64,000 bases of DNA from a bacterium (GTDB lineage: Bacteria > Electryoneota > Electryoneia > Electryoneales > Electryoneaceae). The position numbers and the translations under genes are program-made. The stretch is from positions 2,656,001 to 2,720,000 of the forward strand of contig OY769902.1 of assembly GCA_963669175.1 (NCBI GenBank), in the 5' to 3' direction. A model generated the notes under the pieces. It saw nothing but the letters and a program-made list of their open reading frames with translations. It searched no databases and was not told the DNA's origin. Positions 13,474 through 21,023 of this stretch are shown here, one piece after another (position 1 is the stretch's first letter; every line of letters begins with the position of its first letter).

Positions 13474-15003
13474 TCAGTAGGTCGCCAGCTCGCCGATCTC
13501 GGCTTCCACGGCTTCCAGCACCTTACGCGCCTTGACCGCGTCCATCATGTTGTTGTGGTCCTTGAAGAGCGGACGGTCTACATCAAGATGTTCGACCACT
13601 TCACGTACTGCTGCCTTGGCAGCCTGGGTTCCCTTGCCCGGCATGAATTCACGGAAATCCAGTCCCTGTGCGGCGGCGATGAACTCGATTGCCAGTACGC
13701 CATACGCGTTGTCAAGGATCTGGTTGGTTTTCAGGGCGGTGTTCATACCCATGCTGACGAAGTCTTCCTGGTCCGCAGCGGCCGGGATGGACTGCACACA
13801 GGCCGGGTTGGACAGGATACGCTGTTCCACGATCAGCATGTCAGCCGTGTACTGGCTCAACATGTGGCCGCTGAACATGCCCGCGCCCTTGGTCAGGAAG
13901 GCTGGCAAGCCGACTGACAACGCCGGGTTGAGCAGGCGGTTCAGACGACGTTCGCTCAAAACACTCACCATTGCCACACTCGCGCCGACCATATCCAGTG
14001 GCAGGCTGATCGGAGTGCCCTGGAAATTCGCTCCGGACAGCACCACATCATCTTCCGGGACGAAGATCGGGTTGTCAGCAACACCGTTCAGCTCGGTTTC
14101 GAACTGTTCACGTGCCCATTTCAGGTGATCACGCGCCGCACCAATAACCTGCGGGGTGGAACGCATGGAATAGGCGTCCTGCACCTTGACCTTCATCTTG
14201 CCTGTAGCCAGGTCGGAGCCATCGATGATCTTGCGGATGTTGGTTGCGGATGTAACTGCTCCACTGAAGCCACGGAGTGAATGCAAACGGCCGTCGTAAG
14301 GCTTCATGTTGGCCAGCAGGGCTTCGAGACTCATCGCGGCTGCGATTTCCGCCTGTTTGAACCAGCGTTCGATGTCGAAAATCGCCAGGGATCCCATGCC
14401 GGAGATCAGGTTGGAACCGTTGATCGCGGCGAGGCCGTCACGCACTTCCAGCCCCGGGATCGGGATGCCGGCCTTTTCCATGGCGGTACGGGTGGCCATA
14501 CGTTCGCCCTGGTAGAAGGATTCACCTTCGCCCATCAGGGAAAGCGCGACCTGGCTCATCGGGGCGAGGTCGCCACACGCGCCTACGCTGCCCTTCTGGC
14601 ATACGACCGGGGTGACGCCCTTGTTCAACATGTCCACGTAGGTCATGGTGATTTCGGGACGGCAGCCGGAGTTGCCATGAGCGTGCATGTTGATGCGGCT
14701 CAACATCGCCGCGCGAACCTGCTCGACCGGGACCGGATCGCCGATGCCTGCCGCGTGGTTGTAAATCAAGTACTTCTGGAATTCACGAGTCTGCTCGTCA
14801 TCCAGCACGATTTCGCTGAATTCGCCGATACCGGTGTTGACGCCGTACATGATTTCACGCGCCGCCACTTTCCGTTCCAGGAATGCCCGGCAAGCCTTAA
14901 TCCGTTCTATAGCGTCCGGATGCAACTCGATTTTCTCGCCCAACCGCGCTACCGCGACCAGGTTTTCAATGGTCAGTCCCTGACCAGTGATGACAATAGC
15001 CAT
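13474..15003 (-). CDS. hutH: Histidine ammonia-lyase-like MIO enzyme with Ala-Cys-Gly triad
   Basis: YGVNTG.G, GSVGACGDLAP, INGS, QDAYSMR..PQV.GA, DNP, QEDFVSMG. Confidence 0.85.
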   Translation of the reverse strand: MAIVITGQGLTIENLVAVARLGEKIELHPDAIERIKACRAFLERKVAAREIMYGVNTGIGEFSEIVLDDEQTREFQKYLIYNHAAGIGDPVPVEQVRAAMLSRINMHAHGNSGCRPEITMTYVDMLNKGVTPVVCQKGSVGACGDLAPMSQVALSLMGEGESFYQGERMATRTAMEKAGIPIPGLEVRDGLAAINGSNLISGMGSLAIFDIERWFKQAEIAAAMSLEALLANMKPYDGRLHSLRGFSGAVTSATNIRKIIDGSDLATGKMKVKVQDAYSMRSTPQVIGAARDHLKWAREQFETELNGVADNPIFVPEDDVVLSGANFQGTPISLPLDMVGASVAMVSVLSERRLNRLLNPALSVGLPAFLTKGAGMFSGHMLSQYTADMLIVEQRILSNPACVQSIPAAADQEDFVSMGMNTALKTNQILDNAYGVLAIEFIAAAQGLDFREFMPGKGTQAAKAAVREVVEHLDVDRPLFKDHNNMMDAVKARKVLEAVEAEIGELATY

Positions 15004-15226
15004 GCTATACCTCAAAACTACCAGTTAACGTGCTGACTTTCCGGAGGAAAGCACATTCTCCGTACTTCGTGAAGGTGGAAGATGCAACATTGGGGAAGCC
15101 GTTCCAAGGCTGGGGCTCTGGGAGGAAGCTGGAAGAAAGATATTCGAAGATCGATGTTGTGAAAACTCTTTCTGTTTATGGCTGATGAGCACCTGCATTG
15201 GTCATGTATTTGGTCATTCATGATGT

Positions 15227-15330
15227 ATGCAACCCGCTTCGGGGTTGAAATTAGTTGAAATTTGACATAGGGTAAATGCCAAAAAGACGGCATTTACCCT
15301 ATGCTAAAATAGGGAATCCCATCCGGGATT
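15227..15330. repeat. Three-hairpin REP/IS-end-like element; inverted copy of 15981-16083
   Basis: CAACCC..GGGTTG, CATAGGGTAAATGCC-AAAAAGAC-GGCATTTACCCTATG, AATCCC..GGGATT. Confidence 0.85.
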
Positions 15331-15430
15331 CTTAACAAGAATAGTTACCTCAAAGTGTATTCTTCAGGATTGTCAGAATGTCTGCAATTATCTACATGGT
15401 ATTGATATCATCAAAGAGACGAGATTGTTA

Positions 15431-15716
15431 TTGGGATGAGATTGTCATTGGGACGAGGTTGTCATTGGGACGAGGTTGTCGTTGGGACGAGGTTGTCGTT
15501 GGGACGAGGTTGTCATTGGGACGAGGTTGTCGTTGGGACGAGGTTGTCGTTGGGACGAGGTTGTCGTTGGGACGAGGTTGTCGTTGGGACGAGGTTGTCG
15601 TTGGGACGAGGTTGTCGTTGGGACGAGGTTGTCGTTGGGACGAGGTTGTCATTGGGACGAGGTTGTCGTTGGGACGAGGTTGTCGTTGGGTCGAGATTGT
15701 CATTGGGACGAGATTG
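15431..15716 (+). repeat. Tandem array, 17 copies of 17-bp TTGGGACGAGGTTGTCR
   Basis: Unit starts every 17 bp from 15431 to 15703; degenerate copies at the edges and at 15741-15772. Confidence 0.97.
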
Positions 15717-15792
15717 CAAATATATTTGCAAGCACCATCGTTTGGATGAGATTATCATTGGGATAAGATTGTAAGAATTTTGTAAACACTAA

Positions 15793-15962
15793 CCTTGAGA
15801 CGCGATTATCTTTGAGACGCGATTATCTTTGAGACGCGATTATCCTTGAGATGCGATTATCCTTGAGATGCGATTATCTTTGAGACGCGATTATCCTTGA
15901 GATGCGATTATCCTTGAGATGCGATTATCTTTGAGACGCGATTATCCTTGAGATGCGATTAT
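15793..15962 (+). repeat. Tandem array, 10 copies of 17-bp CYTTGAGAYGCGATTAT
   Basis: Read directly; two variants (CTTTGAGAC and CCTTGAGAT) are interspersed. Confidence 0.97.
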
Positions 15963-15980
15963 CAAATATTGTGGTTGTAC

Positions 15981-16083
15981 AACTCCGAAGGAGTTGCCTA
16001 TTTTAGCATAGTGTAAGCGCTGTCTTTTTAGCGCTTACACTATGTAAGATATCGACAATCTTTCAACCCTGGAAGGGTTGCAT
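15981..16083. repeat. Three-hairpin element directly upstream of tnpA
   Basis: AACTCCGAAGGAGTT, CATAGTGTAAGCGCT-GTCTTTTT-AGCGCTTACACTATG, CAACCCTGGAAGGGTTG. Confidence 0.85.
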
Positions 16084-16105
16084 AAAAACGAAATGTGGAG
16101 GAACC

Positions 16106-16561
16106 ATGCCGCAATCATTTGTTGCAAACTATATCCATCTTGTCTTTTCCACAAAAAATCGAATTTCCGCATTGAAAGGAACTGTTATTCAAAATGAATT
16201 ATTCCCCTATATCAATCAAGTTATCAAAAAAAATCATTCTACTTGTTTTATTATTAACGGAACAGAAAACCATATTCACCTCTTTATCTCATTGTCACCC
16301 AGGGTTGCACTTTCTGATCTGGTCCGGAATATTAAAAGAGCCTCATCAATCTGGTTGAAGGAAAAGGATGCTCAATTCAAGGAATTCCATTGGCAGGAAG
16401 GATATGCCGCCTATTCTGTAAGTCACAGCCTTATGACACAAGTAAGTTCGTACATAGAAAACCAGGAAAAACATCACAAGATGAAATCCTTCGAGGAAGA
16501 GTTTGTTGAATTCCTAAAAATGCAGAGGATGCACTATGATGAAAAATACCTGTTTGGATGA
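16106..16561 (+). mobile_element. tnpA: IS200/IS605-family Y1 HUH transposase (solo, no tnpB)
   Basis: HLVFSTKNR, NHIHL (HUH), WQEGY, YIENQ catalytic Tyr; AT-rich; GGAGG RBS. Confidence 0.92.
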
Positions 16562-16671
16562 TAACTTCCCCAACTCGCATCAAATTCTGTCTTGAGCTTC
16601 CCCATTGAGCGGAGCCGTTCAAAGCCGTATACTCCCTCCAAAGCAAACCATAACCAAAGCAGGGTAGTAGC

Positions 16672-17217
16672 ATGGCGATCAAGTTTCCATCGCAGGAACA
16701 GACAGACCAGGCGCAGAGCCGTCTTGAAGCGCTGGCACGGATAGACCGATATATCGAGATGATCGAAGCCGGGCAAGGTACCGCAGAACTGTTGTACAAC
16801 CTGGGTGTGGCTTACCTGGAAGTGGGTGAGTGGGACGAAGCACAGCGGGCGTTCGAAGAATCAGTCCGTCATGACCCGCGTCTGCTCCAGGGCTATGTCA
16901 ACCTGGGCGCGGTGCATTTCCAGCAGGGACGTCTGGATGAGGCCGTCACCAACATGCGTAAGGCGCTGGAGCTTCAGGACGATTTCCTGCCGGCACGTTC
17001 CAACCTGGGCATCACCCTGATGAAGATGGGACGTCACCAGGAAGCGATCAAGGAACTGGAAATCGTACATGAAGCCGAACCGAAATACCCAGCTGCATTG
17101 GGCGCGTTGGCCATGTGTTACAAAGCCGTAGGCGATGAAGACAAGGCAGAAGCGTTGCGCAAGAAAGCGGAAGAAATGGGTGTCCGCTTCAGCACGCCAG
17201 ATGAAGAACAGAAGTAA
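16672..17217 (+). CDS. Tetratricopeptide repeat protein
   Basis: Repeated YNLG/VNLG/SNLG...A...A...P helix pairs. Confidence 0.9.
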   Translation: MAIKFPSQEQTDQAQSRLEALARIDRYIEMIEAGQGTAELLYNLGVAYLEVGEWDEAQRAFEESVRHDPRLLQGYVNLGAVHFQQGRLDEAVTNMRKALELQDDFLPARSNLGITLMKMGRHQEAIKELEIVHEAEPKYPAALGALAMCYKAVGDEDKAEALRKKAEEMGVRFSTPDEEQK

Positions 17218-17240
17218 TTCGTACTTGCAGAAATGATTGA

Positions 17241-17517
17241 ATTTACAGGATGAACAGGATAAATAGGATATCAAGGATAACTGATAATTATGATGAATTA
17301 AAACGAATGGGTAAAGGATGGAAGGCGACTTCGTTTCTGTTGAATAACTGAAGTTGATTATCTGACCAGGAAAGAGAAAACCTCGAACCGGCTCTGAGAT
17401 CAGGGCTGGTTTTTTTTAAATAAACCAGTTTTCAGTTTTATATCCTTTTCATCCTTTCAATCCTTTGCATCCTGTAAATTCTTGCAGATCCTGTAAATTC
17501 TTGCAGATCCTGTGAAT
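17241..17517. repeat. Inverted AGGAT / ATCCT ~9-bp-period arms
   Basis: ATTTACAGGATGAACAGGAT... at left; ATCCTTT/ATCCTGTAAATTCTTGCAG units at right. Confidence 0.75.
17386..17417 (+). terminator. Intrinsic terminator after the TPR gene
   Basis: AACCGGCTCTGA..TCAGGGCTGG followed by a T9 run. Confidence 0.75.
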
Positions 17518-18318: not shown

Positions 18319-19359
18319 ATGAGATTTTGGTTTTCCCTCTTCGTGATGCTGATTTTGATCGCCATCCCGTGGTTTGTATCGGGAACGGCTACGGTGTTTT
18401 TCGCTGTAGTCATGCCGTACATCGCGCTGGTGGTTTTTCTGGTTGGCATTGCGCTCAAGCTGCTGAAGTGGTCACGGTCAGCTGTACCGTTCCGCATCCC
18501 CACGACGTCGGGACAGCAGAAATCGCTGAGTTTCATCAAGAACGACAAGCTGGAAAGTCCGCCAAACGCTTTCTGGACAACGATGCGGATGGCTGCTGAA
18601 ATCCTGTTCTTCCGTTCCCTGTTCAGGAACACGGCAACGGATATCAAGGAAGATCGGAATGGTGAAGAACGTGTGGTCTACGGTTCCAGCAAGTACCTGT
18701 GGGCCGCAGGCATGGCGTTTCACTACACCTTCCTGATCATCGTGCTGCGTCACTTTGACTATTTCAGCGATCCGACGCCGTTCTTTGTTCCCTGGATCAA
18801 CGCATTTGACGGCTGGGTACAAATTGGTCTGCCGGTGCTGTACATGACAGACGCGCTTTTCCTGGCTGCGGTTGGTTATCTGTTTGTTCGCCGTGTCTGG
18901 GATCCCAAGATCCGTTATATCACCATGGCGCAGGACTGGTTCCCGCTGTTGCTGATCCTGTCGATCGGTACAACCGGTGTGTTGATGCGGTACTTCATGA
19001 AAACTGACATTGTCAGTGTGAAGGAATACGCAGTGAGCCTGTTCGGCGCACAACCCACTGTTCCGGCTGAGCTTGGTACGATATTCTGGATTCACCTGTT
19101 CCTGGTTTGCTGCCTGTTGATTTATTTTCCGTTCAGCAAGCTGATGCACATGGCGGGCGTATTTCTCAGCCCGACACGTAACCTGGCGAACAACAACCGG
19201 ATGAAGCAGCATGTCAACCCGTGGAATTACGATGTCAAGGTTCACACTTACGCGGAATATGAAGAGGAATTCCACACGGTGATGAAGGCTGCCGGGTTGC
19301 CATTGGAGAAAGAATACGCAGATCCGAAACCTGCTGCCAAAGAAGCTGAGAAGGAGTGA
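18319..19359 (+). CDS. dsrM: DsrM membrane cytochrome b
   Basis: VPFRIPTTSGQQKSL, FRSLFRNT, FPFSKLMH, PTRNLANNNR. Confidence 0.95.
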   Translation: MRFWFSLFVMLILIAIPWFVSGTATVFFAVVMPYIALVVFLVGIALKLLKWSRSAVPFRIPTTSGQQKSLSFIKNDKLESPPNAFWTTMRMAAEILFFRSLFRNTATDIKEDRNGEERVVYGSSKYLWAAGMAFHYTFLIIVLRHFDYFSDPTPFFVPWINAFDGWVQIGLPVLYMTDALFLAAVGYLFVRRVWDPKIRYITMAQDWFPLLLILSIGTTGVLMRYFMKTDIVSVKEYAVSLFGAQPTVPAELGTIFWIHLFLVCCLLIYFPFSKLMHMAGVFLSPTRNLANNNRMKQHVNPWNYDVKVHTYAEYEEEFHTVMKAAGLPLEKEYADPKPAAKEAEKE

Positions 19360-19361
19360 GC

Positions 19362-21023
19362 ATGTCATCTGAACCAAGATTTACCAAGAGTGGCCTGCTC
19401 CAGATCGACACCCGTCCACCGAGTAAGGATTGGACCGATCCCTCCATCAACTTCGAGGAGAAGCGCGGGAACTGGTGTTACTCCGGCGTTCTGGCCTCTT
19501 TGAAATACCTGGACCTTCCGACCCCGGACCACAAATGGGCGCCGGATGAAGAGAAGTGGCCACTTCCGGAGAACTGGAAGCAGATCATTATGGACGGTCT
19601 GCATGAGAGGCTGAAGAAATTCCGCACTCTGCAGATCTTCATGGATATTTGTGTACGTTGCGGCGCCTGTGCGGACAAGTGCCATTTCTTCATCGGGTCT
19701 GGCGATCCGAAGAACATGCCGGTGCTGCGTGCCGAGCTGCTGCGTTCGATCTACCGTAAGAACTACACGATGGCCGGGAAGATCATGGGCAAGATGGTTG
19801 GCGCCCGTGACCTGACCGAGGATGTGATCAAGGAGTGGTTCTACTACTTCTACCAGTGTACCGAATGTCGTCGTTGCAGCGTGTTCTGCCCCTACGGCAT
19901 CGACACGGCTGAGATCACCATGATCGTTCGAGAGCTGCTGTCCCTGCTGAACCTGAGTGTGGACTGGATCGTCACCCCGGTGGCGAACAGCTTCCGTACA
20001 GGTAACCACCTGGGTATCCAGCCGCATGGTGTGGCGGATAGCCTTGAATTTGCTGCGGACGACCTGAAAGACATCATTGGTATGGAGGTCGAGGTGCCCA
20101 TCAATAAGAAGGGCGCTGAGATTCTGTTCATCACCCCGTCAGCAGACTATTTCGGTGAACCGCACTACTTCACCCTGTTGGGCTACCTGGCGCTGTTCAA
20201 ATATCTCGACCTGGATTATACCTGGAGTACCTACGCATCAGAAGGCGGTAACTTCGGCCTGTTCCACAGCCATGAGATGATCAAGCGGCTGAACGCGAAG
20301 ACCTACGCCGAAGCGGATCGTTTGGGTGTGAAGTGGATCCTGGGCGGTGAATGCGGTCACATGTGGCGTGTGTATCATCAGTACATGCACACCATGCAGG
20401 GCAAAACTCCGCCGAAACTGGAAGTGCCGAAGAGTCCCTTTACCGGTACTGTGTTCGATAATGCTTCCGTGACCAAGATGATCCATATCGCCGAGTTCAC
20501 GGCCGACCTGATCAATAACGGCAAGCTGAACCTGGACAAGAGCCGTAACGATCACTGGACCCCGACCTTCCATGACAGTTGCAACCCGAGTCGCGCCATG
20601 GGGCTGCTGGATGAGCCACGTTACATCCTGAACGCGACCTGTAACAACTTCGTGGAAATGCCGGAAAATACCATTCGTGAACAGACTTTCTGCTGCGGTT
20701 CGGGCGCTGGTCTGGGTACGGACGAAAACCTTGAGGCACGGTTGCGTGGCGGCCTGCCACGTGGCAACGCTGTGAAGTATGCCCGCGATGAGTACGGCGC
20801 AAATATTCTGCTGTGCATGTGCGCCATTGACAAAGCGACCCTTCCGGCCGTCTGCGATTTCTGGGCGGAAGGTGTTGAGGTTGGTGGTGTTCACGAAATG
20901 GTTGGCAACGCTCTGATAATGCCAGGTGAAACCCATCGTGAAACCGACCTTCGTGGCGAACCTTACCCCGAACCCGAAGAAGCGAACGACACCAAGAGCG
21001 AGGAGGTGACTGAGAATGCATGA
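19362..21023 (+). CDS. dsrK: DsrK Fe-S/CCG catalytic subunit
   Basis: CVRCGACADKC, CTECRRCSVFCP, GECGH, HDSCN, CCGSG. Confidence 0.95.
   Translation: MSSEPRFTKSGLLQIDTRPPSKDWTDPSINFEEKRGNWCYSGVLASLKYLDLPTPDHKWAPDEEKWPLPENWKQIIMDGLHERLKKFRTLQIFMDICVRCGACADKCHFFIGSGDPKNMPVLRAELLRSIYRKNYTMAGKIMGKMVGARDLTEDVIKEWFYYFYQCTECRRCSVFCPYGIDTAEITMIVRELLSLLNLSVDWIVTPVANSFRTGNHLGIQPHGVADSLEFAADDLKDIIGMEVEVPINKKGAEILFITPSADYFGEPHYFTLLGYLALFKYLDLDYTWSTYASEGGNFGLFHSHEMIKRLNAKTYAEADRLGVKWILGGECGHMWRVYHQYMHTMQGKTPPKLEVPKSPFTGTVFDNASVTKMIHIAEFTADLINNGKLNLDKSRNDHWTPTFHDSCNPSRAMGLLDEPRYILNATCNNFVEMPENTIREQTFCCGSGAGLGTDENLEARLRGGLPRGNAVKYARDEYGANILLCMCAIDKATLPAVCDFWAEGVEVGGVHEMVGNALIMPGETHRETDLRGEPYPEPEEANDTKSEEVTENA

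Follow-up and report, generated by a model that had tools for sequence, protein, structure and literature searches.

The window analysed here is a 64,000-nt stretch of the genome of a member of the Electryoneaceae (Electryoneota; GenBank GCA_963669175.1, contig OY769902.1, 2,656,001-2,720,000), and contains a small transposase gene of the Y1 HUH type, tnpA, preceded by two inverted copies of a large structured repeat made of three hairpins, hereafter called the module. The analysis shows the structure and covariation of the module, its inverted placement beside tnpA, its dispersal in the genome and its co-occurrence with tnpA in other bacteria. The locus holds the following features, where MITE-A denotes one of two families of miniature inverted-repeat transposable elements (MITEs) that carry modules in this genome:

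15224..15337, plus strand: '+' module, with a CAACCC/GGGTTG small hairpin, a 15-bp stem with AAAAAGAC loop, and a GAATCCC/GGGATTC small hairpin
15338..15382, plus strand: outer segment, weakly collinear with the MITE-A segment between module and terminal repeat
15418..15716, no strand: satellite array 1, 17-bp unit GACGAGGTTGTCGTTGG, 17.6 copies, 95% matches (Tandem Repeats Finder)
15793..15963, no strand: satellite array 2, 17-bp unit CCTTGAGACGCGATTAT, 10.1 copies, 51-bp higher-order period (Tandem Repeats Finder)
15973..16086, minus strand: '-' module, directly upstream of tnpA, which is its canonical place, with the module 5' end towards the gene
16097..16103, plus strand: putative ribosome-binding site GGAGGAA, 2 nt before the ATG, predicted from the sequence
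16106..16561, plus strand: tnpA, coding for a 151-aa Y1 HUH protein with the motifs NHIH, WQ and YIENQEKHH
16562..16598, no strand: truncated right boundary, where the expected downstream '+' module is absent

The three-hairpin module and the tnpA locus

Read directly, the stretches 15227-15330 and 15981-16083 each carry, in inverted orientation to one another, a three-hairpin module of ~105-115 nt. The central hairpin of the left copy is composed of the stem CATAGGGTAAATGCC, the loop AAAAAGAC and the stem GGCATTTACCCTATG, and that of the right copy, on the opposite strand, of the stem CATAGTGTAAGCGCT, the same loop AAAAAGAC and the stem AGCGCTTACACTATG. Both stems are perfect over 15 bp, and the four positions at which they differ are all compensated (4/4), while the left copy and the reverse complement of the right one are identical at 79 of 105 aligned columns. 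The three-hairpin fold is predicted in all four combinations of strand and copy, with z-scores from -6.9 ('+' module) to -8.3 ('-' module), and none of 200 shuffled sequences equals it.

A covariance model, R1, was built from 19 aligned distinct module variants of this genome, and matches the '+' and '-' modules of the window with 100.5-100.6 bits (E 5.7e-19) and 117.8-117.9 bits (E 1.5e-22), respectively. A structure-based genome scan brought up further variants with unrelated stem sequences and the same architecture and loop. Compensatory change is seen at 16 of the 25 predicted pairs among the 19 variants, one stem position being G-U in 8/19. In an alignment of 68 copies from across phyla, both sides change at 25/25 pairs, 93.1% of paired cells can pair against 70.3% after shuffling, and the covariation score is 0.421 against 0.106 for shuffled and at most 0.058 for slid partners, the pairing counts being somewhat inflated because this alignment was fitted to R1. 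The module is under selection for structure.

The consensus of the 68 modules starts with a conserved single-stranded ATG(T/C) at the 5' end, followed by a small GC hairpin with a UNCG-type loop and ~20 variable bases. Then comes the central hairpin, with a conserved base (CCnnGGGT/ACCCnnGG) and a variable top, a conserved single-stranded CTAY tail, and a second small GC hairpin. In a Blastocatellia genome, at least 9 units of 76 nt follow one another head to tail (L156; G016:C61:71650-72370), and a heptamer microsatellite abuts this array. Each of these units consists of one small and one central hairpin, so that neighbouring modules share a small hairpin, and the basic repeat may be two-part rather than three-part.

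At the window locus, the modules come in the order '+' then '-' with 654 bp between them, a space in which the two satellite arrays add up to 27.7 copies of related 17-bp units. The unit of array 1 forms no second array in the genome, and array 2, which stops ~10-19 nt short of the '-' module on the 3' side of the latter, or 9 nt counted from the R1 span 15973-16086, is also unique there; by eye only, the satellite unit resembles the MITE-A terminal repeat at ~8/18 positions. Downstream of tnpA, we could not find any module with R1 and filters off, the locus yielding the two upstream copies only, nor any tnpB, the next gene coding for a tetratricopeptide repeat (TPR) protein. Homology with the upstream region of the congeneric TPR gene restarts near 16598, ~37 bp past the tnpA stop, and the left neighbour differs; a rearrangement or deletion thus ends the unit there. 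Synteny with the congener is limited to this right flank, from which the empty site cannot be reconstructed, and the fragmentary assembled contigs of three sequencing runs contained no informative variant or joint at the locus.

The '+' module is 80-81% identical to the right-hand module of MITE-A (BLAST), and a local alignment of window positions 15200-15440 with the right half of this element reaches the start of its terminal repeat, with weak similarity. No MITE ends were found at the locus, weak collinearity with the MITE-A outer segment being the most that is present. The right module aligns collinearly with the left half of MITE-A and the left module plus ~50 nt beyond it, weakly, with the right half, so that two half-elements point their outer ends at each other with the satellites in between. 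Such a layout would fit a circularly permuted unit, or a tandem pair seen at its middle.

The tnpA gene starts 22 bases after the right module copy (15981-16083) and has a GC content of 36%, against 50% in the genome. Its product matches Pfam Y1_Tnp (PF01797, E 1.6e-25), passes the NCBIfam model of IS200/IS605 transposases (NF033573, 70.4 bits for a cut-off of 55) and aligns best, among solved structures, with ISDra2 TnpA (2xm3, E 4.8e-7), an alignment that retains the HUH histidines and the catalytic tyrosine. Residues H56, H58, W96, Q97, Y116, Q120, H123 and H124 are invariant in 10 homologues. The genome has a single close paralogue (5013755-5014207, 46% identity), in which the HuH motif is DHVH where the window protein has NHIH, with N for D, and WQ is invariant. 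Three distant Y1 genes (1503063-1503380, 5361186-5361539 and 4919430-4919690; 24-31% identity to the window protein) were also noted, one of them with an in-frame TGA. None is flanked by modules with R1 and filters off, and a MITE-A copy lies ~100 bp from the first.

The initial annotation of this locus, made on the letters alone, thus stands in most of what it described: the inverted three-hairpin copies at 15227-15330 and 15981-16083, the four compensated stem differences around an identical loop, which it took for selection on structure, some 27 satellite units between the copies, and no matching end or tnpB downstream of the gene. Its 'solo' tnpA has the paralogue just mentioned, and the ends that enclose satellites rather than tnpA turn out to be a local rearrangement of the arrangement described below.

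Modules beside tnpA homologues and the Acido-Lenti-1 motif

With R1 and filters off, the paralogue is flanked by a '-' module (63 bits) and a '+' module (62 bits), and the tnpA homologues of the congener and of another genus of the family have the same flanks, which makes '-' module, tnpA, '+' module the canonical unit. This is the arrangement of the MITE doublets with the gene replacing the spacer, each module having its 5' end towards the gene. The window tnpA goes with A-type modules (77-81% identical to those of MITE-A) and the paralogue with B-type modules, i.e. those of the second family, MITE-B, so that each paralogue has its own repeat variant. One side of the paralogue unit also bears a MITE-B terminus, and no second one was found within 5 kb.

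A pattern-plus-tblastn search with one genome per species gave 593 relatives, of which the best 80 loci were kept (35-49% identity) and 70 were scanned with R1, filters off (L074-L143, with L144-L153 left out). The 80 loci belong to Planctomycetota, Verrucomicrobiota, Acidobacteriota, Bacteroidota, Ignavibacteriota and others. An R1 match at E<=0.1 is present at 51 of the 70 loci, and never inside tnpA (0 matches). The nearest upstream module within 150 nt is '-' at 32 loci, which is the position and strand of the '-' module of the window, and '+' at 5; the nearest downstream module is '+' at 30 and '-' at 5. Both flanks are canonical at 22/70 loci and at least one at 40/70. The element is associated with homologous tnpA genes. 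Some loci carry clusters, for example five '-' modules upstream and three '+' modules downstream in Blastocatellia. At another locus (L157; G007:C142:12300-13700, positions 57-75 and 971-989), a second '+' module adjoins the first ~15-20 nt of the tnpA coding end, which suggests a copy made with a breakpoint inside the gene.

The module overlaps a motif already in the databases, Acido-Lenti-1 (RF01687), which Rfam annotates as a small RNA (sRNA) of unknown function, still so in 2026, and which Table 1 of Weinberg et al. rates as 'probably RNA' and not cis-regulatory (Weinberg et al., 2010; PMC2864571). Its 46 nt correspond to the central hairpin of the module, the CUAY linker and the UNCG-capped hairpin, whereas the window module has a 15-bp central stem, an 8-nt loop and, in addition, a proximal hairpin. 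Seed sequences given in the supplement of the same paper agree with the module in the central hairpin, the CUAY linker and the capped hairpin. An Rfam scan of 12 tnpA loci (11 from across phyla plus the paralogue, L002) gave 8 RF01687 matches of 25-36.9 bits, the gathering score being 37, and all 8 fall within R1 matches of like strand and cover the distal two hairpins, the part that RF01687 recognises in short modules. In a genome of the same family, above-threshold matches flank the tnpA genes and coincide with 5/5 R1 matches, and scores next to tnpA in relatives reach 50.1 bits. The window copies have no match at E<=1 beyond chance level (Rfam on 15000-16700). A literature search centred on TnpAY1 and on Acido-Lenti-1 brought up no paper linking the motif to a Y1 transposase, a result limited to that search.

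RF01687, a model built independently of ours, also finds the inverted arrangement. At 30 tnpA loci of five multi-copy acidobacterial genomes, its matches on the left are '-' in 7 cases and '+' in 2, and those on the right '+' in 6 and '-' in 2, with both flanks reversed at one locus (L184). Concerning co-occurrence, we used thresholds of E<=0.001 for RF01687 and E<=1e-30 for tnpA, the tnpA set of the own phylum being hand-picked from matches at E<=1e-20. Among 79 genomes of this phylum, 13 have both, 3 tnpA only, 9 the motif only and 54 neither (odds ratio 26), and the corresponding numbers for 101 genomes of one acidobacterial class are 67, 7, 10 and 17 (odds ratio 16); as the genomes are related to one another and the counts carry no phylogenetic correction, Fisher values overstate the evidence. 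One of the genomes with tnpA only is the congener, which has 89 long-stem modules invisible to RF01687. Among 16 genomes of the window's order, R1 modules occur in 4 (at least 150, 89 in the congener, 50 in another genus, and 1), all with tnpA (4/4), and two more genomes have tnpA without strong R1 matches. In genomes of other phyla, R1 finds at least 150 modules in Blastocatellia, some in 76-nt head-to-tail arrays, 23 in Pirellulales, 2 in another, and none in two others.

From these data we consider it fairly probable that the window holds a rearranged and right-truncated copy of a REPtron-like unit, in which a Y1 tnpA of subclass 1.2 is paired with a large structured repeat. The modules could instead be signals of RNA or transcription rather than substrates of TnpA, acting as untranslated regions, insulators or terminators that tune tnpA, or as free small RNAs, and spread by MITEs and slippage only. 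The hairpins 5' of tnpA in IS200 do shield and tune the gene. At the window locus, the complement of the third hairpin together with CCTATTTTAG resembles a terminator (15980-16006) read towards tnpA, and the upstream module abuts the putative ribosome-binding site. More generally, all four variants of the UNCG loop occur in the small hairpins when the modelled strand is read, as would befit RNA, G-T exceeds A-C by 61 to 30 among the non-Watson-Crick positions of 74 distinct central hairpins, amplification in this genome looks DDE-like, and Acido-Lenti-1 has its published rating as probable RNA (Weinberg et al., 2010; PMC2864571). However, the flanking modules lie on opposite strands, so that one transcript would contain one sense and one antisense copy, and the same inverted arrangement recurs whatever the neighbouring genes. 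Moreover, the T-run behind the third hairpin is not conserved across phyla, and the tandem arrays and clusters around tnpA are like those of repetitive extragenic palindromes (REPs) and bacterial interspersed mosaic elements (BIMEs). As for the loops, UNCG on one strand is a GNA triloop on the other, very stable in single-stranded DNA, so that they do not decide between RNA and DNA. On balance, we regard a role as RNA or transcription signal alone as unlikely.

Dispersal of the module in the genome and its MITE carriers

BLAST of either window copy against the whole genome hits ~99 places, mostly MITE-A, and the modules number at least 150 by R1 and 249 by iterated nhmmer. Among these 249, 103 adjacent pairs are '-' then '+' modules less than 150 bp apart with their 5' ends facing, an order to which the window pair is an exception.

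Such numbers bear on the idea that '-' module, tnpA and '+' module form an autonomous insertion sequence (IS) of the IS200 group, with large inverted ends, that moves as a whole and has decayed in the window. The TnpA passes NF033573 with intact catalytic residues, the low GC content of its gene suggests a foreign origin, and some acidobacterial genomes have 7-8 tnpA copies. This idea is nevertheless improbable in our view. The tnpA copies are few and divergent rather than multiple and identical with ordinary ends, with 2 at 46% identity here, and a median identity of 37-47% and a maximum of 49-83% between paralogues in five multi-copy genomes, none identical. Furthermore, modules vastly outnumber genes (249 against 2 close tnpA copies here), and the ends of IS200/IS605 elements are described as not being inverted repeats (Quentin et al., 2018; PMC6006769).

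Most inverted doublets of this genome are carried in MITE-A and MITE-B. MITE-A is 395 bp long, with 43 paired-end copies (e.g. G000:C1:109789-110184) in which two inverted modules lie 86-90 bp apart. Its ends are CTGTCTCTT..., in full CTGTCTCTTGCTCACATCTTC and its complement, and resemble the end sequence of Tn5/IS50. A perfect 10-bp direct repeat of varied sequence flanks 36/43 copies. MITE-B is ~471-475 bp long (52 doublets aligned, e.g. G000:C1:781516-781986) and has terminal inverted repeats CCCGAATATTTCA, flanked on either side by YTAR, consistent with duplication of TA in CTAG. Its doublet is made of two different module variants, with the loops AAACTGAC and AAACAGAC, and a ~300-bp class with MITE-B ends comprises 22 pairs. 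Both carriers thus have the terminal inverted repeats and target-site duplications of DDE-type MITEs. DDE transposases acting on these two families are the most likely cause of the amplification of most copies here and, the modules being mostly inside such DDE-like doublets, local amplification is probably second-hand.

We could not find any autonomous MITE-A element: a genome-wide search with the 21-nt end and up to 4 mismatches returned, besides the MITE copies, only a few solo sites; the two that were inspected lie inside ordinary genes. CTGTCTC ends spaced by 0.7-3.5 kb with a 9-11-bp duplication correspond to two MITE-A copies with nested insertions and nothing else (G000:C1:4494613-4496329 and 847595-848464); in one an IS with a 413-aa DDE-like open reading frame (ORF) is inserted in a small hairpin, in the other a MITE-B is inserted in the long-hairpin loop at CTAA. 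Many MITE-A copies lie inside the loop of a repeated hairpin, CCCGGCT(T/G/A)(T/A)AGCCGGG, preceded by CTCTTCTTAGC, and MITE-A seems to insert preferentially into this second family of small palindromic repeats.

That the Y1 enzyme itself moves the doublets bounded by terminal inverted repeats, staggered nicks at the inverted modules giving duplications on repair and the two MITE families being non-autonomous partners of the two tnpA genes, is very improbable: it would agree with the lack of an autonomous element with MITE-A ends in the genome, with the two Y1 genes being the sole coding relatives of both families, with the MITE-B terminus on the paralogue unit and with the match of each family to the modules beside a different paralogue, but the MITE-A ends are Tn5/IS50-like, the duplication lengths differ between the families, the second terminus is missing at the paralogue unit, and DDE transposases of other families are present, such as the 413-aa ORF inside one MITE-A copy. 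Moreover, no HUH Y1 transposase is known to make target-site duplications (background in PMC6006769).

Satellite arrays of 16-20 bp units also occur 2-106 bp from modules elsewhere in the genome (3743328-3743509, 3836555-3836655 and 1502365-1502499), the first two abutting module 3' ends, and of 76 tandem-repeat rows of at least 100 bp, 11 have a module no more than 150 bp away, which amounts to 7 distinct loci with the window counted once. A degraded tnpA between the modules at 3836657/3837257 was looked for and not found, the 496-bp gap holding another small inserted element. In the remainder of the window, positions 17227-17327 and 17429-17500, downstream of the TPR gene, stand out in run X1 by many loose ends and a very high summed depth of contigs, and are probably another dispersed repeat. 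The ORFs at 18319-21023, unrelated to the module and tnpA, may code for membrane and iron-sulfur subunits akin to those of a DsrMK-type or nitrate-reductase-gamma-like complex.

Interpretation and comparison with known systems

If the locus is indeed a REPtron-like unit, a TnpA dimer would bind the central hairpin in single-stranded DNA, by analogy with the TnpA of IS608 and ISDra2 and with TnpA-REP of E. coli, and would nick and rejoin beside the conserved single-stranded tail, with local duplication and dispersal of modules and doublets as the outcome. In the window, the downstream module would have been lost, leaving the '+' module with its outer segment to face the upstream module across the two satellite arrays. 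We infer binding and cleavage of the module as single-stranded DNA from this analogy, and the 'domesticated' TnpA and the 'recognition element' of the initial annotation are likewise inferences. Its RAYT-like reading (RAYT, REP-associated tyrosine transposase) is partly supported: the inverted, REPtron-like arrangement with homologous tnpA genes agrees with it, while the protein is nearer to IS200 TnpA, as the NF033573 score and the absence of a match to the RAYT model indicate.

A wider proposal, which we hold to be about as likely as not, is that Acido-Lenti-1 is not primarily an sRNA but a DNA-level, three-hairpin cognate repeat, i.e. a REP analogue, of subclass 1.2. This subclass would then be a third, class-1 lineage of REPtron type, present in at least six phyla, and its doublets would in this genome also have been captured and amplified by two unrelated MITE families with terminal inverted repeats.

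Several observations weigh against the REPtron-like reading. The GT[AG]G foot of REPs is absent from the 68-module consensus, and the window TnpA has no match to the RAYT model NF047646, for which the paralogue scores 35.9 bits against a cut-off of 80. Some motif-rich genomes lack tnpA at E<=1e-30 (e.g. with 44, 52 and 34 matches), and flanks are reversed in 5+5 cases at the 70 cross-phylum loci and at 3/12 acidobacterial loci with adjacent matches. The RNA-like UNCG loops and the fitting of the 68-copy alignment to R1 have been mentioned. Lastly, the Tn5-like ends and 10-bp repeats of MITE-A and the terminal inverted repeats and YTAR flanks of MITE-B are not known from HUH chemistry, and neither family has an orientation bias relative to replichores defined by GC skew (25:19 for MITE-A, 31:21 for MITE-B).

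Were the proposal right, the Y1 HUH proteins of a widespread subclass classified without repeats would have a cognate repeat, and with it a substrate open to test, while an abundant orphan 'RNA motif', read as a regulator in many genomes, would acquire a partner protein and a hypothesis of mechanism. Partnerships of the REP/RAYT type would also have arisen within the IS200-like class, there with a multi-hairpin element of much larger size. The conserved base and tail, along with two paralogue-specific variants in one genome, would offer a ready specificity system. The nesting of module doublets in DDE-type MITEs, where one repeat system is carried by another, is unusual.

Among known systems, IS200, IS608 and ISDra2 share with the window locus the Y1 HUH fold, the catalytic residues and hairpins adjoining the gene, and IS200 has a terminator-like hairpin upstream of tnpA, as here. 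The differences are ends that are inverted and ~100 nt long, being copies of one module, the lack of tnpB and the lack of multiple identical copies, whereas IS200/IS605 elements occur in several near-identical copies, and their ends have subterminal hairpins instead of inverted repeats. TIRYT elements (De Nocera et al., as cited in PMC6006769) also combine a Y1 gene with inverted repeats rather than simple hairpins. They are described there as mostly of subclass 2.1, with helix-turn-helix (HTH) tails and a repeat consensus GGGG[AT][CG]A[CG], none of which applies here.

By its motifs, the window protein falls into TnpAY1 subclass 1.2 as defined by Quentin et al. (2018; PMC6006769, Table 1), a placement based on motifs and family models. 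Its 151 aa compare with a median of 148, its HuH motif NHIH with DH[IV]H, shared in the form [D/N]H[IV]H, and YIENQEKHH with Y---Q--HH, and WQ and the conserved ~30-aa C-terminal tail are also in common. Likewise, subclass 1.2 has a low copy number and a low identity between copies of a genome, and here there are 2 copies at 46%. The passages on this subclass in the same paper list it without REP and place it mostly in Cyanobacteria and Bacteroidetes (PMC6006769), whereas the members considered here are flanked by a conserved structured repeat and come from many more phyla.

The closest parallel in arrangement is with the REPtron/RAYT systems (Nunvar, 2010; Bertels & Rainey, 2011; Ton-Hoang, 2012; class 2 of Quentin, 2018). 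Their class 2 proteins have Y---NP, whereas the window protein is of class 1, IS200-like, with Y---Q--HH; the module is ~100-115 nt long with three hairpins and without the GT[AG]G foot, and its doublets ride in MITEs with duplications. What they have in common is a low-copy Y1 HUH gene flanked by inverted palindromic repeats, tens to hundreds of dispersed repeats, often in inverted doublets or clusters like those of REPs, BIMEs and REPINs, and one repeat variant per paralogue. The inverted flanks and genomic dispersal of such a unit are found complete at the paralogue, and at the window locus with the canonical upstream flank only.

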